In this document: in pieces, positions 116-10,070 of the stretch
Numbering within the stretch: the first letter of the stretch is position 1
Layout: each line of letters starts with the position of its first letter
Assembly (NCBI GenBank): GCA_050012255.1
Contig: JBEKHN010000032.1
Span: forward strand, 1-10,299
Length of the DNA stretch: 10,299 nucleotides
Direction: 5' to 3'
Source: Candidatus Bathyarchaeia archaeon
Lineage (GTDB): Archaea > Thermoproteota > Bathyarchaeia > Bathyarchaeales > Bathycorpusculaceae
Program-made: the position numbers and the translations under genes
Notes under the pieces: generated by a model
The model's input: only the letters and a program-made list of their open reading frames with translations
What the model was told of the DNA's origin: nothing
Databases searched by the model: none

Positions 116-415
116 TTTGACAAACCTCCTATTGCCCAAGTCTTCATTGCCCAGATTTAAGACGTAATCTCTTTTGCGCTCTTTTCCCGTTCGGTCAGGC
201 GTTCGGTGGGCTTATGCAATTCGTTGAAGAACAAAGTCGCAGCCGAATCAAAAAGCAGTCACGGACCTGAAGAACTTCTACACCCATCTCTTCTTTTTTC
301 CAGAATAGATAGACCTTCGTCTGCATCAAAAAGCCGCAGATCTTGATCAGGCTTGCAAGCTTCTCGAGGCTCGCGTTTGCTATTTCCTTCTGATAAGCAT
401 CCTTAGTGCGCGCGC

Positions 416-516
416 TATGAGGGGTAAGTTTTCGAGTCTTTTTTACCCCTCGCAGTATAGTCTTAGCTTCATTATGAGGGGGTAAGTTTTTGAGCTTTTT
501 TGACCCCTCGTAGCAT
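416..516. repeat. Two direct repeats (416-458 and 473-516), each internally an inverted repeat
   Basis: TATGA-GGGGTAAGTTTTCGAGTCTTTTTTACCCCTCGCAGTAT vs TATGAGGGGGTAAGTTTTTGAGCTTTTTTGACCCCTCGTAGCAT (6 substitutions, 1 indel). Copy 1 has perfect arms GAGGGGTAA (419-427) and TTACCCCTC (443-451). Confidence 0.9.
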
Positions 517-605
517 CAACTCACTATCCTATCCTTTCCTGTTCCAGTAATATCCAGATGTATCCTGAAGCGGCTGTAGGTTTTAGCGTCCATTGGAAGC
601 CCATG

Positions 606-687
606 GTTGTCCTGTCGTCCACTAACCGTCGTCCGTCGTGGTCGTCGTCGTGGTCGTCCGTCGTCCGTGTTGGTTGGTTGGTTGGGG
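606..687. repeat. GTCGTCC/GTCGTG short-repeat array followed by (GTTG)4GGG
   Basis: GTCGTCC at 614, 628, 653, 660; variants at 606, 635, 641, 647; (GTTG)4 at 669-684. No A on the + strand from 626 to 688. Confidence 0.9.
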
Positions 688-702
688 TAAAGTTTTATCC
701 CA
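683..702. repeat. Imperfect palindrome TGGGGTAAAGTTTTATCCCA related to the 416-516 repeats
   Basis: Arms TGGGGTAAA / TTTATCCCA with 1 mismatch; shares GGGGTAA(A)GTTTT with both upstream repeats. Confidence 0.75.
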
Positions 703-1002
703 CTACGAGCGCGCGCGACACAAAGCTCCTGCGAAACCTTCGATTTTTAGACTTCTTAAGATTTTAGATCCTCTCTCGGTGAAATTCATTGAATTTTCCG
801 ATCGGCTTTTTTTGCTGTGGCGAGCACTTTCAACCATGTTGATTTGTCATTCTCAGCTGCTTTTTGATCAGGAATGAATTTCAAAAGGCCAAAGCATGGT
901 TAAAAAACACCCTGCCTAAGCTTCTTCTGCTGCCCAATACGGCAGTTTTTAGGGCCATCTGCTTCTTGATCTGTATTAAGGGATCGAAAAATGGAACCCG
1001 TG

Positions 1003-1761
1003 TCAATTGGTATCCGTGCGGGCTACGTGTGGGTCGATGGATTGCCGGTTTGGCCATGAAATGTCCTCTCGCCAATTTACTCCTGGAAAAGCTTCTACGA
1101 TCGGTGTCACCACTTGAACTACGGCCTCGCGGAAGAAGTCATGTTCTGCCAAGTCCTGGTTTAAGCGTCTAAAAGCCTCAGAATCTAGCGCGTACGCCAA
1201 TTGTCTTCCACGAGCTCTACCCTTCGCATCTGCTCTGTCAGCTGTGACGAGGTTCCATTCTCTGAGTCGCTTCAGAATCGTGGAGACTTGAGACTTGGAC
1301 ACGTGCAATATTTTCTTAAGGCCGCTTTGTGTGAAGTAAAGTTTCTCATGGCATAATAGGATCGAAATCGTTTTCAAATCGGAATCTCTCACGCGTCCGT
1401 AGAGCGAGAGGCCTATGAGACCGATTATTCCGTGTTTTTGAAAGACTTCTTGCATGTTCAGCACGGGTTTTTCCGTTTGTGGTTGCGCGTTCCGTATTTC
1501 CCTCATGTATTCTTCAAACTCGTCCATTCTCTGTTTGCTCTTCCAGTTGTTTGCAGTCAATACTGGAATCATCTCCAAGAAGTCGACGTCGAGTTTATGA
1601 CAGAAACGACGTTGAAGTTCCGAGATTTTGTCTGGCTGTCTCTCCCAAGGCCATATAGGAAAAGTCTCTGTCGGACCGCATATGGGACAGACCACCGTGT
1701 GCTTTATGAGCCAAGGCGGGCAAAACTCTTTCCTAGTCATTTTCGTTCTCACTCTCCACAT
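1003..1761 (-). CDS. Winged helix-turn-helix DNA-binding protein with N-terminal Cys motif (possible Zn site)
   Basis: FTQSGLKKILHVSKSQVSTILKRLREWNLV...GRQLAYAL fits a wHTH; FCPP...CPICG near the N-terminus; start overlaps the upstream ORF. Confidence 0.8.
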   Translation of the reverse strand: MWRVRTKMTRKEFCPPWLIKHTVVCPICGPTETFPIWPWERQPDKISELQRRFCHKLDVDFLEMIPVLTANNWKSKQRMDEFEEYMREIRNAQPQTEKPVLNMQEVFQKHGIIGLIGLSLYGRVRDSDLKTISILLCHEKLYFTQSGLKKILHVSKSQVSTILKRLREWNLVTADRADAKGRARGRQLAYALDSEAFRRLNQDLAEHDFFREAVVQVVTPIVEAFPGVNWREDISWPNRQSIDPHVARTDTN

Positions 1762-2117
1762 GAATTCTTGAGAAGCTTCGACAGAGCGTCAACAACGCGT
1801 TCTTTTTGCCTGTAAACCTCGCGAGTCTTGTCCTCTATGAATAGGTTGACGATTGCGGTGAGTGGGTTGATGATTTTTCTAGTCAGAATACAGTCGAGGT
1901 ATTCGTGTCTCAATGTTTCTAGAGCGTCACGCAAATCTTCATCATAAACGTAGATTATGCCCTCTGCCACTTCTCCGGACAAGCTACTTCCAACTTGTGG
2001 TTTCCAACGAACCGCAGTCACCTCATCGCATGGAATCAAAGTTTTCAGCTTCACAAGCTGTTTAGCGAGGACACCCTGAACACAAGGATGCTCGAGTTTC
2101 ACGATTTTCTGCATCAT
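1749..2117 (-). CDS. Hypothetical protein with zincin-like HExxD motif
   Basis: SGEV...GIIYVYD...ALETLRHEYLD resembles the strand-plus-HExxH helix of minimal metallopeptidases, with the second His replaced by Asp; ATGA overlap with the upstream gene. Confidence 0.75.
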   Translation of the reverse strand: MMQKIVKLEHPCVQGVLAKQLVKLKTLIPCDEVTAVRWKPQVGSSLSGEVAEGIIYVYDEDLRDALETLRHEYLDCILTRKIINPLTAIVNLFIEDKTREVYRQKERVVDALSKLLKNSCGE

Positions 2118-2686
2118 CTTTCACCCAACCCGCTTGAATCACCCGGTTGCAGTCCATGTTCATTCATTTTTTGACGCAGCGTTTCGGCACGCTTTTTCAG
2201 TCGCTTCAAAGCATTCAGAACCTTATCATAAACGCCCAGAACTTCGGCTGTGGAGAACTCATCAACATTTGCAAGAATCTCGTCCGCAATGGTACTCAAC
2301 AACTGGTGTGTCTCAGTCGCAAGAGAATTCAACTCCTCGACGAGCCGCTGCGCACGCTTTGATTGGGCTTCATTGGTTGTTTCACTTTGATCCTCGTCTA
2401 GCACAGCAAGCGCAGGACTGAACACTCTGTTTTCAGAGACTACCCTTTTAACCTCCTCGATTGTAACTTCACCCATACCTTCAAACTCTCTGGCAATCTC
2501 CAGCAGACGCTCGCACTCAACCAGTTGTGAAAACCTGAAAAGTTTGTTGACACCCCAAGCCTTTAATGCATTAAACTCTTCTCCAAGCGCAAGAGACTCC
2601 AACTTGGCGAAAAGGTCGCCTATCGCCATATACAGTGAGATTGCACTTTCACTCAAGCCTGTTTCATGGGCCAACAAGGCCTGCAC
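2114..2686 (-). CDS. C-terminal half of split ParB-like protein: HTH plus helical/coiled-coil region
   Basis: Begins directly with QALLAHETGLSESAISLY, a ParB-type HTH; overlaps the ParB domain ORF by 23 nt; heptad-rich C-terminus. Confidence 0.75.
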   Translation of the reverse strand: MQALLAHETGLSESAISLYMAIGDLFAKLESLALGEEFNALKAWGVNKLFRFSQLVECERLLEIAREFEGMGEVTIEEVKRVVSENRVFSPALAVLDEDQSETTNEAQSKRAQRLVEELNSLATETHQLLSTIADEILANVDEFSTAEVLGVYDKVLNALKRLKKRAETLRQKMNEHGLQPGDSSGLGER

Positions 2687-3113
2687 TCCCTCCCTCCCTC
2701 TTGCCTGTCTCCTTTTCTAACTCTCGTGCCCAAGCCGCGTAGAATAGGCACTTTTCGTACGCCGACCTATCTTTTCTTTGAAACGTTGCCTCGCTTGTGC
2801 GGAAAACATCCGAACCTTTGACGCAAGGTATTACATCTACAAGAACCTCTATTTGCTCGTCTTTCACTGAAAGAAGTCTTCCATCACCATCAATGAGTTC
2901 AAACTCATCAGTTTTTCCCGGGATTGAATGGACAAGCAGAGGTTGCAGAATTCCATCTTTTTCAACTGATCTTGCTATTTTTGGGCCGTGAGCTCTTTGA
3001 GGAAGAACGGTAGATCGATGGACATTTCCAGCTCGCACCCACTTTAGCACTCTCTCCTCTGCTTGTTCAATTTTGCCCTCACTAGTCATCGTTTCATCCT
3101 CGCCAGTTTTCAT
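2664..3113 (-). CDS. ParB/Srx N-terminal domain protein (N-terminal half of split gene; real start may be ATG 3089)
   Basis: IARSVEKDGILQPLLV...FELIDGDGRL matches ParB box I and the GxxR motif; ...SEATFQRKDRSAYEK resembles the ENxQRxDL region. Confidence 0.85.
   Translation of the reverse strand: MKTGEDETMTSEGKIEQAEERVLKWVRAGNVHRSTVLPQRAHGPKIARSVEKDGILQPLLVHSIPGKTDEFELIDGDGRLLSVKDEQIEVLVDVIPCVKGSDVFRTSEATFQRKDRSAYEKCLFYAAWARELEKETGKREGGSAGLVGP
2686..2700. repeat. Tetranucleotide repeat (CTCC)3CTC at the ParB frameshift
   Basis: Removing one 4-nt unit joins the two ORFs in frame (...ETGKREG-VQALLAHETG...). Confidence 0.8.
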
Positions 3114-3248
3114 CCACGCACATTACGTGAGCGCGGAGTCGTGCGTAACTTCGGTGAAATAGAGGAAACAATCACTGTCAGCTTTGGGTTCCTTTTGGAA
3201 ACTTATGAATCGTCTCGGAAACCGTCTTCTGAATTGTGTTGGCTTTGA

Positions 3249-3476
3249 CTATGCGCACGCGCTAACTTCCGGTCTTCCTTGGCCATCTCCCTCAAAATGG
3301 CCCGCACTAGACGCATGGGGTAGCGCGCGCCCGTTAACTATGAAAGGCTGCTGAACGCCAACCGTATTTACAGAATCGGCGAGTTCTGTTTGGTGAATTT
3401 GGGGAGGCAGAACTGGAGAAGGGTGAACAGTCTTTGCCTTCACAATTTTGTAGTCTCTTTTTTCTCTCATTTTCAA
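3249..3476 (-). pseudogene. Truncated, degenerate ParB-like paralogue
   Basis: KIVKAKTVHPSPVLPPQIHQTELADSVNTVGVQQPFIV aligns without gaps to KWVRAGNVHRSTVLPQRAHGPKIARSVEKDGILQPLLV of the next gene; FEGDGQGR matches FELIDGDGR; stop follows shortly. GGTG SD precedes ATG 3470. Confidence 0.7.
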
Positions 3477-3501
3477 ACACCATTTCTAACATAGAGTTTG
3501 G

Positions 3502-3526
3502 AGCGCAGGTGCGCTATTTATTTATA
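3502..3526. promoter_or_regulatory. Divergent promoter region: inverted repeat AGCGCA-GG-TGCGCT abutting a TATA-like tract
   Basis: IR at 3502-3515; TATAAATAAATA on the minus strand at 3526-3515, about 45 nt upstream of ATG 3470. Confidence 0.5.
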
Positions 3527-3595
3527 GTAGTTTGTGATAGTATGACCGTGGAGATATATTATCTGTAAGGAAGGAAATCAGGACAGTATCCGCCG

Positions 3596-4465
3596 TTGAC
3601 ATTGAATGACGAAAGTCCTAGTATCCCTCTACGCTTGCAAAACCTCGCGCGCGCGCTAAAATTCAACGAATTGCGCACAAGGAAGTTGTCAGCGTTAGAA
3701 TTGAGGGTTCTTCTGACTCTGGCTGATAATGGTCCCCTAACCATGTACTCCATCGCGCGGATGCAGAAAGTTGCATACTCAGCCATCCACAAAGCCACTA
3801 AGAGTCTGGAAAAACTGAACTGGGTGAAGATCATAAGAGAGGAAAAATCGAAAAAACAAGTGACTAGGAAGATCTACAGTCTGACCAGAGAAGGATTGTT
3901 ATGGTTTCTAAGTCGGATACCCACGCTCTTACCAAGAGCGTTAGCTTCCAACGAATTCGCAAAGCCTTCGCCAAGATCGTTGAAGCCCGTCAAATTGAAG
4001 AGCCAAAGAAACCTCGAGGCCCGCTTGTTTCCGGCCTTCAATATACGAAAAACTGCGCAAAAAAACACTGAGCTTTTCCCAGTGGTTTTCGAAAACTGGG
4101 ACTTCTTCAAAAGAATCAAAGTAGCAGACCGCCTATTTAATGGGTTCCCTCAGGCAGCCATGTCAGCTCTCTGCGACTATTACCATCAGAGTTTTCCTTC
4201 AAAGGAATTCTCTTCCCTTGACACGCTTTTCGCATATTACTTGTATTATGGATTTATAGAAGGCGAAGCATACACTCGCGTATATCAGGAAGATCAGGAA
4301 AAGGATGATTGGATTGCAGAAAACAGAAACAGAGCAATGAAAATGCGCGACGAAGGAAAAGATCCACGTCTGCGGAAAATCATTTTAACTGTCACAAAGG
4401 ATCTTGAAAAGAATCTTTCCACAAAACTGGAGTTTGTCAAATCACTCGCAACCCCACAAGCATGA
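3596..4465 (+). CDS. N-terminal winged-HTH (MarR/PadR/TrmB-like) regulator with uncharacterised C-terminal domain
   Basis: LELRVLLTLADNGPLTMYSIAR...AYSAIHKATKSLEKLNWV...RKIYSLTREGL; 289-aa ORF; TTG start uncertain. Confidence 0.8.
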   Translation: MTLNDESPSIPLRLQNLARALKFNELRTRKLSALELRVLLTLADNGPLTMYSIARMQKVAYSAIHKATKSLEKLNWVKIIREEKSKKQVTRKIYSLTREGLLWFLSRIPTLLPRALASNEFAKPSPRSLKPVKLKSQRNLEARLFPAFNIRKTAQKNTELFPVVFENWDFFKRIKVADRLFNGFPQAAMSALCDYYHQSFPSKEFSSLDTLFAYYLYYGFIEGEAYTRVYQEDQEKDDWIAENRNRAMKMRDEGKDPRLRKIILTVTKDLEKNLSTKLEFVKSLATPQA

Positions 4466-4602
4466 TACAGATTATCCGATACACATAGGGCTCGGGCTAT
4501 TTCACTTTTACTCTACTCTCTCCAATCCTCATGAATGTTGTTTCAGGACTAGTCTTTTAACAGATTTCAAGGGGTCATGTTCGTTTGCGGGCTTGACGAG
4601 TC

Positions 4603-5469
4603 TTGCTGTCACAGAGCGAAGTCGGAATATACTATTTAGAGAATTCCCTCAGAGTGCCTAGTCTCTGGAACCTCACGAGAAAGCATTTCCGAGTCTCGCT
4701 CTATGATGGAAGGTTCGTCAAGCTCAACCATTTTGAAAACCGCCTAAACGAGAGAGACCTAAGGTTCTACTGTTACAAGCTCAGGCCTATGCATGTCTAC
4801 TTCAGTGTTCTAAATTGGCTTTTTCCCGAAAGAGTCGGTAAGAAATACAAGGCCGAGTATTGCATTCCCTTGAACGGCGAATATGTCATTGATGTTGACA
4901 GTTACCTTGTCGGTTTTGGGCATGTCCACAAAGTCGATGACCACTGGCTTGTCTGTCCAGAATGCTTGGACATGGCCAAACGCATAGCATTGCAGCTTTG
5001 CGAGGTCATTCACAAATATTACTCAAAGATCGCCATAGTCTTCAGCGGTTGCGCTGGCTTTCACGTTCACGTCATGGACTTCAACTATTACGATTGGGTT
5101 CACTATCACTGGAACGACCCGATATGGGCTCATTCAGCAGCTAGGTTCAAGTTCACTAAACTACTGCAGAAGCAAACTCACTGTTTCGATAGGACTCACT
5201 TCACCGTATTAGTTGACCCCATGCGAGTTGTAACCGTTCCAAACACACTAAACGGCAAAACAGGCCTAGTCTGCAGATTCATTGGAACACCGATAGACCT
5301 GGAACTTCTAGCGCGCGCCAAGATTTGTCGGACTCTGTCAAAATTCACACACAGTAGTATAGAACAGGTTACAGATGGCCTGTTCTTGACGGAAAAAATG
5401 TGTACATTCCTTCTCAAGCAGAACGTTCCGGAGAAGTTTCTGCAGGCTATTCACAATTTTGAGCTTTGA
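4603..5469 (+). CDS. Archaeo-eukaryotic primase, PriS (small subunit)-like paralogue
   Basis: Motif I GEYVIDVD, Zn knuckle H...CPEC, motif II VFSGCAGFHVHV, motif III region VDPMRVVTVPNTLNGKTGL, plus PMHVYFS. Confidence 0.88.
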   Translation: MLSQSEVGIYYLENSLRVPSLWNLTRKHFRVSLYDGRFVKLNHFENRLNERDLRFYCYKLRPMHVYFSVLNWLFPERVGKKYKAEYCIPLNGEYVIDVDSYLVGFGHVHKVDDHWLVCPECLDMAKRIALQLCEVIHKYYSKIAIVFSGCAGFHVHVMDFNYYDWVHYHWNDPIWAHSAARFKFTKLLQKQTHCFDRTHFTVLVDPMRVVTVPNTLNGKTGLVCRFIGTPIDLELLARAKICRTLSKFTHSSIEQVTDGLFLTEKMCTFLLKQNVPEKFLQAIHNFEL

Positions 5470-5648
5470 TCGCCTCCGTTTCGCAAGACTGAGCGAATAG
5501 TTGTTCTTGAATTTTGCTCGGAAAAAACGACCAGCACTAGATAAAGTACTTTCTTGTGTAGACGGCACTAGTGCTCTGAAATGTGAGAACTGCAGTTTTG
5601 TGTTGCGGCGGACGGCAAGGTTTTGCTCAATGAAGTATCAAAATCGTT

Positions 5649-5852
5649 TTACGATGCGTGTTTCTGTCGTTTGCTTTCTTTGTTCTTACGATCTCTGAAG
5701 TTGAGTCTCAACACATGCTTTCTTGGATTCCACTCGATCTTCAACAAGCCTGAAAAGAAGAGATCCGTTACTATGAGGTTGACCTCTTCCTCATCATGTT
5801 CTTGATCGTATTCATCTTCGTATTCGCTTCCAAGGTTCTCGATAAAATCCAA
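5649..5852 (-). CDS. Small hypothetical protein or gene remnant, acidic N-half and basic C-tail
   Basis: Protein-like 67-aa ORF; the frame stays open for 23 more codons upstream without a start codon, so it may be 5'-truncated. Confidence 0.4.
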   Translation of the reverse strand: MDFIENLGSEYEDEYDQEHDEEEVNLIVTDLFFSGLLKIEWNPRKHVLRLNFRDRKNKESKRQKHAS

Positions 5853-6012
5853 GAAGAATTGTCTCGCAACTGCTTCTTTGCTTATGTGTACCCGCTCCGT
5901 TCCATTCGGAAGATGCTATAGGACTCTTGTACTTATGCTCTGTGAGGCGCGCGCTCTAGATGGTATTGCTACAAGTGCCGAAAATACGTTCAGTTCGAGG
6001 TGCGATGAGTGG

Positions 6013-6125
6013 ATGCCTAAATGCCCTAAATGTGGTAGCTCGGAAATCATTGAGTCCAGTCTGCACATTTTTCTTTTGGTTCAAAGAAGTATAAATGCCA
6101 ACGATGTGGGACGGTTTTCAAGTAA
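6013..6125 (+). pseudogene. Frameshifted Zn-ribbon mini-protein (MPKCPKCGSSEIIES...FGSKKYKCQRCGTVFK)
   Basis: First CxxC follows ATG 6013; second CxxC lies in the -1 frame ending at TAA 6123-6125. One added base near 6055-6077 gives a 37-aa Zn ribbon. Confidence 0.65.
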
Positions 6126-6133
6126 GTGATGTT

Positions 6134-6304
6134 ATGACTAGGTGCGCATCCCGTTGAAGAGGAAATAGGTCTTACAGGATGTGGCTGGTTCGCTATCAGG
6201 GTTGCGGCGTGGAGTATTGCGATAATTGCAAGTTGAGGTTAAGAGACCGTATGGTAGGGTTCGGCGGCTGGACGTGCGTGAGGTGCGAAGGAAAAGTCAG
6301 CTAA
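6134..6304 (+). pseudogene. Degenerate multi-Cys Zn-finger mini-protein; 41-aa intact ORF from ATG 6179
   Basis: MTRCASR*RGNRSYRMWLVRYQGCGVEYCDNCKLRLRDRMVGFGGWTCVRCEGKVS: two intact CxxC, two eroded ones (CASR, YQGC) and an in-frame TGA at 6155. Confidence 0.55.
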
Positions 6305-6413
6305 TCAGAGCGCGCGCTCTTTATGGCTTGATTTCTGTAATATTACAAGGTTGGTAACTTGGCTTAAATTCCGAGATCCCGTTGTCAGTTCCTTAGTCAA
6401 AGAGGAACTTTGA

Positions 6414-6890
6414 GTGTTCAATGAGGCTGTGGCAGGGTTCAGGACAGAAATTTCATTCGCGCTCTTAGTGCTGTTGTTCTTCTGTTTGATGTCGCGTATG
6501 GATTATGTTGTTAATTTGACTCTGTATGATTATGGTCTCCGTTTCTCCTATGAATGGGCAGAGGGATACTGGGTTACCTATAATGCAATTTTCGTTACGT
6601 TTGCGTTGGCGATGAGTTGTGCCTACTGGTTTGGGTCTCACAAGACGCGAAGGGACATGAAATTCTCCATCGCGCTGCTCACCACGATAGTTTTCTTAAC
6701 CGTAGGCGGCCTACAAGACATCATGTTTTTTGTTTTTTGGGCTGGTGGTCTGCCTCCAAGCAATATTGTTTGGTGGTGGTCTCCTTTGACAAACCTTATT
6801 GGAACTTGGAACAGCACGATTCAAATCGGCTTCACGACATTGATGGTTGGCGCGAGCATCTGCACATGGATACTGGCCACAAAGAAATAG
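6414..6890 (+). CDS. Hypothetical integral membrane protein (about 4 TM helices)
   Basis: Several long hydrophobic segments, aromatic-rich loop LYDYGLRFSYEWAEGYW, GAGG upstream of the GTG start. Confidence 0.8.
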   Translation: MFNEAVAGFRTEISFALLVLLFFCLMSRMDYVVNLTLYDYGLRFSYEWAEGYWVTYNAIFVTFALAMSCAYWFGSHKTRRDMKFSIALLTTIVFLTVGGLQDIMFFVFWAGGLPPSNIVWWWSPLTNLIGTWNSTIQIGFTTLMVGASICTWILATKK

Positions 6891-7216
6891 AAACGATTAA
6901 CCATCTCATCGAACTGAACCGCACGCGCCCCCAAGAACCTTATTGTCATGAGCTCTCCCTCTACATCAGCACTTCTTATTTCTATCCTATCAGCTCTTCG
7001 CGCACTGAAAAGTTACCACCCTTGCCGGAAGTCTCGCGCGCGCACGTTCCTGATTAACAATAGCATAACACAGTTTAGGTAGCACGACATAACAATTCAA
7101 GCAAACAAAACATAACATCATAAACCAAGAAGCGCGCGCGCTCAACGTTAAACGCTACCCAAAACGTTTTGCTTTCGCAGCTCTTGGATCTTAATCAAGA
7201 ATGAAGGCTAAAGAAT

Positions 7217-8182
7217 ATGGAGAAAATGTTAGTGACTGGTGGAGCGGGCTTCATTGGAAGTCACCTGATTGAAGCTCTTATGGCCCGCAGAATCAACGTC
7301 TGCGTTTTCGACGACTTCGCAGCTGGAACCCTGCAGAACATTAAACCGTGGCTTAAAGATCCAGGCTTCAGCTTCATAAAAGGCGATCTGCTGTGTTCAG
7401 CTGACTTGGCAAAGATTGAGAAAACATGTTTCGAAACAGTCTTTCACTTCGCAGCAAACCCAGAAGTCAGGGCTGGCTTAACTAACCCAGATGTCCACTT
7501 TCAACAAAACGTGGTCGCCACACGCAACCTTCTGGAAGCCGTTAGAAAAGCCGAAAACAAACCTACATTAATCTTCACATCAACATCCACGGTTTATGGT
7601 GAGCCTACGAAAATTCCTACGCCTGAAGATTATGCTCCGCTGAAGCCGATTTCCACTTACGGCGCGTCTAAACTGGCCTGCGAAGCCCTCATCTCAGCTT
7701 ACGCGTACACCTACGGTTTCAAAGCCATAATCTACCGCCTAGCCAACATAGTAGGCCAAAGAAGCCAACACGGCGTAATCCACGACTTCATCCAAAAACT
7801 ACAGAAAAACCCAAACGAACTCGAAATCCTCGGCGACGGAACCCAAAACAAATCCTATCTCCACATAAACGACTGCATAGAAGCCATACTCCTAGGACAG
7901 GAGAAATCAACAGAGCAAGTTGAGATTTACAACGTCGGGTCAGAAGACCAAATAGACGTAAAAACCATAGCTCAAATTGCCGCTGAGAAAATGGGCCTTC
8001 AACACGTCAAGTTCAAGTTCACAGGCGGAGTAGATGGCGGAAGAGGCTGGAAAGGCGACGTTAAAAACATGCTCCTAGACGTAAGCAAAATCAAATCATT
8101 AGGCTGGAAACCAAAACTCAACAGCAAACAAGCCATAACAAAAACCGTAAAAGAACTAATACCTTTTACCTGTACTTTTTGA
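7217..8182 (+). CDS. NAD-dependent epimerase/dehydratase (extended SDR, UDP-glucose 4-epimerase-like)
   Basis: TGGAGFIG Rossmann motif, HFAA, STSTVYG, catalytic YGASK, RLANIVG, GDGTQNKSY, GWKP C-terminus. Confidence 0.95.
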   Translation: MEKMLVTGGAGFIGSHLIEALMARRINVCVFDDFAAGTLQNIKPWLKDPGFSFIKGDLLCSADLAKIEKTCFETVFHFAANPEVRAGLTNPDVHFQQNVVATRNLLEAVRKAENKPTLIFTSTSTVYGEPTKIPTPEDYAPLKPISTYGASKLACEALISAYAYTYGFKAIIYRLANIVGQRSQHGVIHDFIQKLQKNPNELEILGDGTQNKSYLHINDCIEAILLGQEKSTEQVEIYNVGSEDQIDVKTIAQIAAEKMGLQHVKFKFTGGVDGGRGWKGDVKNMLLDVSKIKSLGWKPKLNSKQAITKTVKELIPFTCTF

Positions 8183-8198
8183 AGTACCCCTTTTCCTG

Positions 8199-8645
8199 TT
8201 AGCCTAAGTAAGCCGCTTTGACTTCTTCCTTATTCGATGTGTCTACCAGTCTTTGGTCGCCAGAGAGAAGCTGGTCCACGCCGAGATGTTTTGCCGAGAC
8301 TACTTGTAGCGCGTCAGCTGCGTAGATGTGATGTTTCTCTACAAGCAGCCAACACTCCGCAAGCAGTCTTGATCTTACAGGAACAACCTTAGCTACACCC
8401 AGCTTCAGCAGTCTCACAGTCTCAGCGATGAAAGATTCGCGAGCAGCCCTGTAATCTTCACTCTCCAGCCAGTTCCTTCTATAATACGTGTCCAACGCCC
8501 CTAAAACCTCACCCACGTTCCAAACTGAAAAATGCAAAGTCGCAACGCCGTTAAAGGCCCTCAAGTAGGTCTCTCTAACCTCGTCTGATCCTTCCTCGAG
8601 CACATATCTCTTAACGATGGCACTTGAGTCCAAGTAAACTTTCAA
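8199..8645 (-). CDS. vapC: PIN-domain toxin (VapC family)
   Basis: VYLDSSAIVKRY, conserved acidic residues in VGEV, ADALQ, SGDQRL; 148 aa; TTG start overlaps the upstream stop. Confidence 0.92.
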   Translation of the reverse strand: MKVYLDSSAIVKRYVLEEGSDEVRETYLRAFNGVATLHFSVWNVGEVLGALDTYYRRNWLESEDYRAARESFIAETVRLLKLGVAKVVPVRSRLLAECWLLVEKHHIYAADALQVVSAKHLGVDQLLSGDQRLVDTSNKEEVKAAYLG

Positions 8646-8911
8646 ACTGCTTGCTCCCTCAATTCGCTGATAACCTTTCCAGCAGAAGTGGCGACCTTCG
8701 GCTTAACAGGCCTCACCTCTAGATCAGTTGACATTCTGGAACACATCTTCTCCAGCGCCTCAGCCACAACCAGCTCGCTGAGCTCCTCCTCCAAAGCCTC
8801 CTCAACTGCTCCACTCACCCCCTTTAAACCCCTCTTCGAAGAAGCTTTGACCTTAAAAATCTCCCAAAGGCCCTCATCGATCATTATACTCGTCTTAATC
8901 TTCCCCTTCAT
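8642..8911 (-). CDS. vapB: Antitoxin with ribbon-helix-helix-like N-terminus (VapB)
   Basis: KIKTSIMIDEGLWEIFK...VSGAVEEAL RHH pattern, C-terminal SAGKVISELRE; directly upstream of and coupled to the PIN gene. Confidence 0.8.
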   Translation of the reverse strand: MKGKIKTSIMIDEGLWEIFKVKASSKRGLKGVSGAVEEALEEELSELVVAEALEKMCSRMSTDLEVRPVKPKVATSAGKVISELREQAV

Positions 8912-8932
8912 ACACTTAACCCTACGTAACGA

Positions 8933-8956
8933 AAGGAGTAAATACTCCTTAATAAC
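8933..8956 (-). promoter_or_regulatory. vapBC promoter: TATA-like TTATTAAG with overlapping palindromic operator
   Basis: Perfect IR AAGGAGTA-AA-TACTCCTT at 8933-8950, 22-39 nt upstream of the vapB ATG; TTATTAAG on the minus strand at about 8956-8948. Confidence 0.7.
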
Positions 8957-8963
8957 CCTTGCA

Positions 8964-9300
8964 CACGTGCACTCTGAAGATCAGATAGACATCAAAACTC
9001 TCAGCAAGCTTCTGTGTATAAGCAAACAACAACGCTCAAAACGAAGCTTTCTGCTTTCTAGTACTAAACACCCCAGCCCCCATCTCAATCCATCTAGCAA
9101 AAACTCTCAACGAAGCCTTCACCACCGCCTACGCCACACACGCCTTCAAAGGAAGAAGAGGCTGGAAGGGCGACGTCAAAAACATGCTCCTAGACGCAAG
9201 CAAAATCAAATCATTAGGCTGGAAACCAAAACTCAACAGCAAACAAGCAATAAGACAAGCCATTAAAGCCCGCGCGACCACAAAAAAGACAAACAGGTAA
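8964..9300 (+). pseudogene. Scrambled remnants of NAD-dependent epimerase gene(s)
   Basis: 9155-9253 matches 8040-8138 at 95/99 nt; 8973-8999 encodes SEDQIDIKT (gene: SEDQIDVKT); 9112-9150 encodes [13 protein letters not shown] (gene: EALISAYAYTYGFK). Confidence 0.9.
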
Positions 9301-9342
9301 CCAACCATCTTCACGCGCGAGGCAAAAGACGCGCGCGCGATA

Positions 9343-9597
9343 TTATTGGTAAATCGTTTTTCTTGGGCCTATGGCTATAATGTAAATGGTCTTGTCTTTC
9401 TCTGAAATGGTGTAGATTATTCTGAGTTTCCCAACTCGTAGGCTGTAGTTTTCTTTCAAGTCTCCGTGAAGTCGTTTTCCTGCGTAGGATTGAATCTCTA
9501 AACCGATTAAACTTTCTAGAACTTGGGTTTTGACCTTTTCTTCTAGCTTTTTATAGAATTTCTCGGCTTGTCTTGATAAGAGAATCGTGTATTTCAA
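9343..9597 (-). CDS. relE: RelE/ParE-family toxin
   Basis: YTILLSRQAEKFYKKL...GKRLHGDL...YSLRVGKLRIIY...IIAIGPRKTIY; basic, 84 aa. Confidence 0.93.
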   Translation of the reverse strand: MKYTILLSRQAEKFYKKLEEKVKTQVLESLIGLEIQSYAGKRLHGDLKENYSLRVGKLRIIYTISEKDKTIYIIAIGPRKTIYQ

Positions 9598-9812
9598 TGG
9601 GCTTCTTCCTTTAGAAGACTGTGCAGTTCCTTGACTCTTCCAGTCTTGATGTCTTCGAGGCCTTTGCGGATGTCTTTCATCATGTCTGAATCGCTTAAAA
9701 TCTCAATGGTCTCCAAGAGCTCGCCCATTAGCTTTGTGGCTTCGTCAAGCTTCTGCTTGGTTTCGGAGAGGAGCTTTCGGTCTTCCTCATCTAAATATGC
9801 AACCTTCGCCAT
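9594..9812 (-). CDS. Cognate antitoxin of RelE (likely start ATG 9812)
   Basis: Small acidic ORF coupled to relE; LLETIEILSDSDMMKDIRKGLEDIKTGRV is a typical antitoxin C-terminal pattern; GTGA SD-like sequence upstream of ATG 9812. Confidence 0.8.
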   Translation of the reverse strand: MAKVAYLDEEDRKLLSETKQKLDEATKLMGELLETIEILSDSDMMKDIRKGLEDIKTGRVKELHSLLKEEAH

Positions 9813-10070
9813 TAAAATCACTCAAGTATTACAGATGTGGATCCGACTAATAAATTTGAAAGCGGAAACGCATGGTAGCCTCAACAAGTGCTTCGAGTGT
9901 TCTCTCTTCATGATAGTTCTAGTCAAATCGCTTTCTGCCTGCTTAAAAGCTAAATCACAGATGAATTAGGCGCGCGCGCCATTCTTAAGGCATATTTGTA
10001 TTGTATCGTAGGCCCGGGCTAGGGGCCCGCCTGAACATACACGCCAAAAGCGCGCGCATAAACCATAAAG

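Follow-up and report, generated by a model that had tools for sequence, protein, structure and literature searches.

The GC runs of the window

The stretch analysed here, referred to as the window, is a complete contig (C32) of 10,299 nucleotides (nt) from the metagenome-assembled genome (MAG) of a Candidatus Bathyarchaeia archaeon (GenBank assembly GCA_050012255.1, contig JBEKHN010000032.1). The MAG, which we call G000, comprises 38 contigs and 2.35 Mb at 48% GC, with contamination estimated at 5%. Our subject is a short run of alternating G and C built on the palindrome GCGCGCGC, which is present in the window as 15 overlapping matches at 12 loci (match starts 408, 709, 3323, 3647/3649, 5311, 5947, 6310, 7036, 7132/7134, 9331, 9970/9972 and 10050). 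In 200 dinucleotide-preserving shuffles of the window, the mean number of matches was 0.07 and the maximum 2. A first-pass annotation made from the sequence alone had counted the same 12 loci where it predicted fewer than 0.1, at a GC content judged by eye to be about 44%; the shuffles bear this out, and the measured GC of the window is 0.43-0.48. As maximal alternating runs, the 12 loci are 8-11 nt each (none is assigned a strand):

408-415: GC run of 8 nt; separates block 1-409 from a repeated non-coding element at 418-703
709-717: GC run of 9 nt; closes the repeated element 418-703, with dozens of matches terminating at 699-706
3323-3330: GC run of 8 nt; no homology boundary found close by
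3646-3656: GC run of 11 nt; near the 5' end of a winged helix-turn-helix (wHTH; TrmB/MarR) open reading frame (ORF) at 3596-4465
5311-5318: GC run of 8 nt; inside an AEP-primase-like ORF at 4603-5469, and homology to other copies of the gene ends here
5947-5954: GC run of 8 nt; end of repeated block 5656-5950
6310-6317: GC run of 8 nt; part of a longer palindrome at 6307-6320, no boundary found
7035-7043: GC run of 9 nt; left border of an 86-nt segment at 7044-7129
7132-7141: GC run of 10 nt; right border of the same 86-nt segment (7044-7129) and situated upstream of the epimerase gene
9330-9339: GC run of 10 nt; left border of a ParE/RelE toxin-antitoxin module
9970-9979: GC run of 10 nt; right border of the toxin-antitoxin module, degenerate in the copy of a sister species
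10050-10057: GC run of 8 nt; upstream of a MazE/AbrB-type antitoxin gene

Homology to other genomes tends to stop at these runs. The window was compared with the 11 genomes of the genus, one of which, G001, is the single-contig complete genome (2,346,764 nt) of the sister species and was compared in full; BLAST match ends are exact to within a few nt. Eight of the 12 loci (408, 709, 5311, 5947, 7035, 7132, 9330 and 9970) lie within 12 nt of a homology boundary, and against G001 and the rest of G000 alone 6 of the 12 do, compared with 0-2 at offset controls. Window 1-409 matches contig C6 of G000 at 94%, and matches spanning 288, 294 or 297 to 409 and 418 to 665, 568 or 512 begin or end at the 408 run. 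Window 4704-5309 matches G009:C30, and other AEP-primase-like copies align over residues 1-246 only. Copies of block 5656-5950 are found in G007:C14 (93%), G001 (91%) and G000:C14 (93%), while segment 7044-7129, which lies exactly between two runs, recurs at G001:26712-26794. The ParE/RelE module occurs elsewhere in other surroundings, with 9319-9977 being 98% identical in G001 and 9333-9884 being 99% identical in G007. In G001 it adjoins a 100-nt internal piece of the epimerase gene; a run immediately borders this piece on the left, and on the right 12 nt separate its join from the next run.

Three loci (3646, 5311 and 10050) fall inside our crude gene calls, so that the earlier count of nine loci outside credible genes was about right. 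Of these three, 10050 is probably 5' of the true gene start because the MazE domain begins only at residue 42. Just 3 nt separate the end of run 9330-9339 from the stop of the minus-strand ORF 9343-9597, as had been noted for a relE gene. Other features of the window are as follows:

418-703, plus strand: repeated non-coding element between two GC runs, with copies in G003, G007, G008 and G009
8199-8911, minus strand: PIN (VapC) toxin with a small upstream ORF, flanked by a duplicated epimerase 3' end
9343-9821, minus strand: ParE/RelE-type toxin (9343-9597; PF05016, E 1.3e-8) with an upstream small ORF (9594-9821), a mobile module between two runs

The element at 418-703 corresponds to what had been called an origin-like block and is a repeated non-coding element. 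It contains two 38-nt direct repeats (421-458 and 479-516), short CGTCGT-type repeats and a terminal word of about 30 nt (669-703). Copies of this word, 93-100% identical, are found at dozens of sites across all genomes of the genus; it includes TAAAGTTTTA, the top 10-mer of G000 by maximal-order Markov analysis. An Rfam search of the window, this element included, returned no match. There are two copies of the epimerase 3' end, at about 8040-8140 and 9160-9260 on either side of the PIN/VapC pair, so the pair appears to have been inserted into or beside the end of that gene; window 9155-9248 matches the epimerase region of G004. Pfam recovered the epimerase, PIN (VapC), ParE-type toxin and MazE/AbrB labels of the first-pass annotation and gave no match for its "Zn-finger pair" and "membrane gene". 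The archaeal origin it proposed is confirmed by the nearest relatives of the window epimerase, all of which are from Bathyarchaeia/Bathyarchaeota MAGs. Window 1003-5469 holds a MarR-like ORF, a weak ParB_N match, the wHTH (TrmB/MarR) ORF and the weak AEP-primase-like ORF, and this left half of the contig resembles a module of plasmid or virus type. Copies of the AEP-like gene are broken by stop codons in G000:C19, G009:C30 and G006:C95.

Abundance and shape of the motif

Across G000, GCGCGCGC is the top 8-mer by z-score, with 434 copies per strand where about 26-31 are expected. On both strands together, 868 copies are observed against 51.5, 54.2 and 62.4 expected at Markov orders 0, 1 and 3, which are ratios of observed to expected of 16.8, 16.0 and 13.9, respectively. 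The iterated palindrome is therefore real and genome-wide, and it stays enriched after Markov correction at orders 0-3. At order 6 the ratio is 1.1, but only because two sub-words, GCGCG and GCGCGC, head the over-represented 5- and 6-mers.

The maximal alternating runs of G000 number 7,854 at 4 nt, 1,735 at 5, 517 at 6, 171 at 7, 201 at 8, 123 at 9, 63 at 10, 2 at 11, 2 at 12, 1 at 14 and 1 at 16, revealing a separate population at 8-10 nt with a sharp upper cut-off. The 393 runs of at least 8 nt typically read A-GCGCGCGC-T, with the consensus (T)A-(GC)4-5-T(A). The preceding base is A in 68-82% of G-starting runs and the following base is T in 60-80% of C-ending runs; T at -2 and A at +2 are preferred less strongly. 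Beyond -2/+2 the flank profile is flat, indicating that the motif is not part of a longer repeat and ruling out a miniature inverted-repeat transposable element (MITE) or other longer repeat behind it.

Runs avoid genes and shared DNA

Our gene calls for G000 are home-made and crude (2,191 genes, 81% coding). By these calls, 50 of the 393 runs lie in coding sequence (CDS): 23/201 of the 8-nt runs, 18/123 of the 9-nt runs and 9/69 of those of at least 10 nt. For comparison, 6,396 of 7,854 4-nt alternating runs are in coding DNA. Spacers with a run have a median length of 382 nt, compared with 110 nt for those without. Run density is similar in tandem (0.79 per kb), divergent (0.61) and convergent (0.88) spacers, and no distance from run to start or stop codon is preferred. 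Together these argue against a role as promoter or terminator, which we reject.

The runs are also concentrated in DNA that the two species do not share. Syntenic blocks of G000 and G001 are mostly about 91-95% identical, and 59% of each genome aligns. Of the 393 runs in G000, 49 are inside aligned DNA, 53 at a block edge and 291 in unaligned DNA; the corresponding figures for the 455 runs of G001 are 43, 85 and 327. Run density in G000 is 1.17 per kb for intergenic DNA that does not align and 0.29 for intergenic DNA that does; the corresponding values for CDS are 0.056 and 0.008. Among intergenic runs, 12% are inside aligned DNA, 14% at an edge and 74% unaligned, while random intergenic positions divide into 44%, 3.3% and 53%. 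The motif is thus strongly intergenic and accessory.

Within G000, the end of a repeated segment (BLAST high-scoring pair) lies within 8 nt of a run at 60 of 393 loci, compared with 12-23 at offsets of 30-200 nt. Repeated segments end at the run and seldom cross it, and in 208 of 237 such cases there is no run at the corresponding end of the other copy. The first-pass annotation had placed the motif at module boundaries; boundaries of modules and of homology blocks do carry it, both in the window and genome-wide.

Where both genomes align, 19 runs are shared, 20 are found in G001 only and 27 in G000 only. Most unshared runs differ by 1-3 substitutions, and 5 correspond to clean gaps. The conserved fraction is 19/46 for G000 and 19/39 for G001; random intergenic 9-mers are conserved in 50.5% of cases and their GC-rich counterparts in 46%. 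Run conservation is neutral, and the motif is not a conserved signal. These data bear on the suggestion that the run is a motif like the cyanobacterial highly iterated palindrome HIP1, kept by selection as a signal for methylation, chromatin or Z-DNA. Its over-representation is on the HIP1 scale, and alternating GC can form Z-DNA. However, the run is near-absent from ORFs and confined to variable DNA, it is conserved only at the neutral rate and no methyltransferase co-occurs with it, so the HIP-like signal was not borne out and we regard selection as the least probable of the explanations considered here. A z-alpha profile search gave no match, but its control likewise gave none.

Runs at the junctions of structural variants

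We examined 234 variants of at least 60 nt in colinear blocks of G000 and G001, comprising 104 clean indels and 130 replacements. A run was assigned to a junction if it lay within 15 nt, and control positions were taken 60-200 nt into the flanks. Runs of at least 6 nt were found at the junctions of 96/234 variants (controls 5-9) and runs of at least 8 nt at 62/234 (controls 0-2). The clean indels, for which runs of at least 6 nt were counted, show a polarity. In 25 of the 104 the short allele has a run and neither end of the long allele does; in 6 the run of the short allele is accompanied by a run at one end of the long allele and in 3 by runs at both ends, while 11 have a run or runs in the long allele only.

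That the long allele is the ancestral one is shown by genes cut at the junctions. Several long-allele junctions fall within Pfam domains, namely ChrB_C (residue 56 of domain 6-138), UbiA, GNAT acetyltransferase and DUF996, and also near the end of an MFS transporter; a called gene is cut more than 30 nt from its ends in 6 of the 18 scars where G000 has the long allele. G007 (91%, colinear), G003 and G009 share the ChrB-MFS arrangement, which means that the 1.64-kb deletion of G001, marked by a 7-nt run, is derived. At C8:16972 of G000, a 9-nt run stands in place of 254 nt that G001 keeps; the same site in G007 carries an independent deletion with different end-points and no run. Automatic extraction of the filler failed on many events owing to mismatches, and only clearly resolved joints were used: these have 6-16 nt inserted, with a GC core and often an A in front, and at two joints the insert extends a CGC or GCGC already at the ends. 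With a run in the derived short allele and none in the long one, the run is new DNA made at the joint rather than a pre-existing site for conservative recombination. The reverse pattern is found as well, in the form of some insertions with runs at both ends and a run-free empty site (for example, one of 606 nt and one of 13 kb, both in G001).

This polarity is difficult to reconcile with the model of the first-pass annotation, in which the run is a conservative site-specific recombination site and cassettes move between runs as they do at attC sites or dif modules. Modules like the ParE/RelE pair are bracketed by runs and are 98-99% identical in other contexts, as that model would have it, and 3 of the 45 run-bearing indels have two sites in the filled allele and a single site in the empty allele (for example, G001 1559002-1560753). 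However, 25 of the 45 have no run at either long-allele end, there are no conserved recombinase-binding arms around the run, random gene fragments are bracketed as well and the runs are not conserved. The proposed recombination joint therefore stands as a mark of junctions and is largely refuted as a conservative cassette site, which we now consider highly improbable.

Two further observations concern individual sites in G001. At 422301-422969 two separate GC-run scars lie in 660 nt and replace 206 nt and 1,641 nt of G000 sequence, which suggests local hot spots. Two insertions of about 1.5 kb that are absent from G000 (2007252-2008767 and 2251983-2253520) have long terminal inverted repeats, classical target duplications and no GC run; these are ordinary insertion sequences (IS) of another family.

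Distribution across the Bathyarchaeia

The 10-mer AGCGCGCGCT is present in 7-114 copies in 10/10 other genomes of the genus and in 0-1 copies in 20 genomes of neighbouring genera. Among these 30 close relatives the trait is genus-specific; its spread across the class leads us to reject this as a general description. In a sample of 301 class genomes, 24-131 copies were found in families f26, f27, f35 and f36 and also, within f1, in another three genera; the reversed control has 0-5 there. The trait is patchy class-wide, being found in families f1, f26, f27, f29, f35 and f36. In a 100-kb sample of G080 (family f35, 40% GC), GCGCGCGC is again the top 8-mer (62 copies vs 0.7 expected), and of the 20 runs of at least 8 nt, 14 are preceded by A, 14 are followed by T and 14 are outside crude ORFs. 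In several f24 genomes without enrichment of A-GCGCGCGC-T (for example, G126, G084, G179 and G124), the other-phase control T-CGCGCGCG-A rises to 13-26 copies, and there may be a phase variant of the motif in this family.

Insertion sequences and MITEs associated with the runs

A shared terminal inverted repeat often follows a run of 6 nt. Such repeats are the ends of MITEs, which measure 150-290 nt and fall into several subfamilies; G000 has 72 of these ends and G001 has 39. The autonomous partner encodes a DDE_Tnp_1 (PF01609) transposase of 328 aa between terminal inverted repeats (G009:C18), and a 328-aa transposase ORF with terminal repeats was read at loci L255 and L273. In G000 (C24 and C10) and G001, autonomous IS with the MITE terminal repeats are present as decayed copies only. 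The nearest NCBIfam models for the transposase are IS1182 and IS5, both below their cut-offs, and the family assignment is accordingly loose. Diverged relatives of the IS from other genera and families (41-74% identity) also mostly have GC runs at the element ends. Six contigs of G000 (C8, C9, C15, C16, C20 and C25) end inside GC-capped MITE copies, showing that these repeats break the assembly.

The flanks of 17 out of 36 detected MITE pairs are runs of 6 and 6 nt, and flank sums of 12, 13, 14 and 15 nt occur in 17, 5, 3 and 1 cases. The empty sites of three filled/empty pairs are 8-nt runs (one with a mismatch), and that of a fourth, complex case is a 9-nt run. Since 6 + 6 nt equals an 8-nt run plus a 4-bp duplication, this pattern fits insertion into the centre of a run. 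A duplication of a palindromic target is indistinguishable from element tips, and outside the run no direct repeat was seen, with flanking dinucleotides agreeing in 7 of 19 copies. The IS5/IS1182-like IS and MITEs probably insert mid-run, as three or four filled/empty pairs show and flank arithmetic suggests for the others.

The same elements give rise to the main rival explanation for the runs, namely that the IS5/IS1182-like IS and MITEs have GCGCGC as their outermost tip, that solo runs are excision footprints or remnants of tip-to-tip deletion and that larger scars reflect deletion between tips. Consistent with this, a GC run is found at one or both element ends in 7 of 8 diverged-family loci, motif-poor genomes included (the eighth, L282, is unclear), and the flanks of MITEs measure exactly 6 nt in nearly every case, being extended no more often than expected by chance. 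Three insertions that bear a transposable element have run-free empty sites, the A/T preference at IS and MITE flanks is the same as that of the motif and one short allele retains 7 nt of terminal inverted repeat together with a run (C10:59513-60755).

However, the distributions of element and motif do not match. MITE terminal repeats number 66 copies in G000, 23 in G001, 21 in G003 and 10 in G007, and 0-2 in the other seven genus genomes, which include the motif-rich G004, G008 and G009; in G004 and G008 we found 0 terminal-repeat and 0 DDE_Tnp_1 matches, although extinct or unrelated elements may once have been present. The IS transposase family occurs in 65 of the 301 class genomes. None of these is in f35, where five genomes were sampled without a transposase match and have 42-131 copies of the 10-mer in four cases and 13 in the fifth. 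In the motif-poor f24, where AGCGCGCGCT is not enriched, 30 of 53 genomes have the family. Further, the lack of target duplication outside the run fits insertion into a run better than an origin from tips, and several steps would be needed for scars that have no element at either ancestral end. On balance we think it rather unlikely that the runs originate from element tips.

Candidate agents

Methylases were considered as possible agents of the motif, as the first-pass annotation had suggested looking for one, and none fits. The C5 methylase family (PF00145) is present in 2/11 genus genomes (G000 and G007) and not in the complete G001, while an N4/N6 methylase (PF01555) was not found in the motif-rich G080. 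The intact C5 methyltransferase genes of G000 are at C7:4931-5887 and C6:37304-38281, and among 31 relatives the family occurs in G000, G007 and G030 only. These results also bear on the possibility that a nuclease cuts at a GCGCGC-like site and leaves a 4-nt self-complementary overhang, with slipped or filled-in re-ligation giving runs of 6, 8 and 10 nt. Such a process might explain the palindromic run, its excess at 8 and 10 nt and the sharp limit at 10 nt. Against it, ancestral deletion end-points lack such a site, 9-nt runs are common (123), the methylases are distributed as above and no nuclease was identified, so that we find cutting and re-ligation improbable.

Other candidates were rejected by their distribution or identity. 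An IS630/Tc1-type DDE_3 transposase, for which TA is the target, was found in 0/31 genomes, and a reverse transcriptase, as would be needed for telomerase-like templating, in 0/10 motif-rich genomes. The AEP-primase-like gene of the window is present in 5/11 genus genomes only, mostly as pseudogenes. Multi-copy genes of G000 considered as transposases turned out to be PQQ propellers, GT4, TBP, TFB and one integrase.

Within the genus, the most attractive candidate was a Ku/LigD operon, which in G000 (C10:11503-15305, read as L270:7504-11306) is a complete archaeal operon for non-homologous end-joining and encodes a LigD primase-polymerase, Ku, a ligase fused to a 3'-phosphoesterase and a DUF72 protein. 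Ku is present in 8/11 genus genomes, missing only in the three least complete, vs 1/20 neighbours. Its class-wide distribution speaks against it as the agent.

A proposed origin of the runs

Our preferred reading, which is tentative, is that the run is a scar of rearrangement produced by end-joining or DNA capture with a self-complementary GC tail, and later becomes a landing site for the IS and MITEs. A run would be written when DNA of the flexible genome is deleted, captured or replaced. During illegitimate end-joining, both DNA ends would be given the same self-complementary GC tail or adaptor and would be sealed through it. With a shared self-complementary tail any two ends could be joined, and every joint would carry the same palindrome. 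Inserted fragments, random gene pieces included, can bear a run at each end, and the runs afterwards drift at the neutral rate, as the comparison of G000 and G001 shows. In a more specific and more speculative form of this hypothesis, a horizontally patchy end-sealing activity in some Bathyarchaeia could write TA(GC)4-5TA into every illegitimate joint, whether deletion, capture or cassette replacement, and an IS/MITE family could have evolved to live in the scars.

Several points weigh against an origin of the runs by end-joining. No run is found anywhere in 59 of the 104 clean indels, and pure small insertions of a run in otherwise aligned DNA are few (5). Filler of constant sequence is not known among the products of non-homologous end-joining (NHEJ) or microhomology-mediated end-joining (MMEJ). 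None of the candidates searched for as the joining enzyme accounts for the trait: G016, the only neighbour positive for Ku, shares the operon of G000 (Pol 65% identical) and shows no motif enrichment, Ku occurs in 89/301 class genomes with many Ku-positive genomes lacking the motif, and among the 17 genomes in which the 10-mer reaches 20 copies or more, Ku is present in 5 and gave no match in 12. The comparison itself covers one species pair in full, the related genomes are not independent, the gene calls are crude and the BLAST ends approximate.

If runs are written at joints, an uncultured and globally abundant archaeal class would carry its own marker of structural change, and gene loss, gene capture and the traffic of toxin-antitoxin cassettes could be mapped from single genomes. 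If the end-sealing activity exists, such a genome would hold a readable record of its double-strand-break repair and DNA capture. The motif would then point to a joining enzyme, or a mobile agent, whose sequence signature is fixed, and because the trait is patchy over the 301 sampled genomes, this agent could be found by phylogenetic profiling.

Comparison with known systems

We found no description in print of GCGCGCGC in archaea or of a Bathyarchaeota MITE with its transposase, and in a review of HIP sequences (PMC4390886) the terms "archaea" and "GCGCGC" do not occur. Like cyanobacterial HIP1 (GCGATCGC), the run is a GC-rich octamer palindrome that is more than 10-fold over-represented and lineage-restricted. 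HIP1 is reported to be 15- to 300-fold over-represented, to be conserved beyond expectation within and between ORFs (PMC5861425) and to have cognate orphan methylases (PMC5861425, PMC4390886). The Bathyarchaeia run, unlike HIP1, stays largely out of ORFs, shows neutral drift, is found at rearrangement junctions and co-occurs with no methylase. It would thus be a counter-example to HIP1, in which an equally over-represented octamer palindrome is a neutral by-product rather than a selected signal.

The run also recalls the repetitive extragenic palindromic (REP) sequences and the bacterial interspersed mosaic elements (BIMEs), as it is an extragenic palindrome in hundreds of copies in which IS and MITEs sit. 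REP sequences are described as short extragenic palindromes in hundreds of copies that are targets of specific IS (PMC1525189) and as imperfect hairpins of 20-40 bp with a conserved head (PMC3733652). The run differs in that it is a perfect 8-10 nt sequence with only A/T flanks conserved, and in that it arises de novo at deletion joints.

As in the filler scars of NHEJ and MMEJ, we see deletions with a few inserted nt, captured unrelated fragments and a location in dispensable DNA. Known end-joining fillers vary in sequence, whereas the core of the run is always (GC)3-5, and Ku is not co-distributed class-wide. The runs also resemble transposon excision footprints and solo tips, which are short palindromes left by the tips of elements, and the IS and MITE copies here are capped by GCGCGC. 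Footprints, however, would be expected as small pure insertions with target duplication and would require an element, whereas the events here are mostly deletions and replacements and several motif-rich genomes have no element. Finally, the arrangement of discrete modules, often toxin-antitoxin pairs, between short repeated sites resembles that of integron attC sites and of plasmid dif (Xer) modules. Those sites are 28-140 bp long, have recombinase-binding arms and undergo conservative exchange, while the GC run has no arms and its exchange is not conservative.

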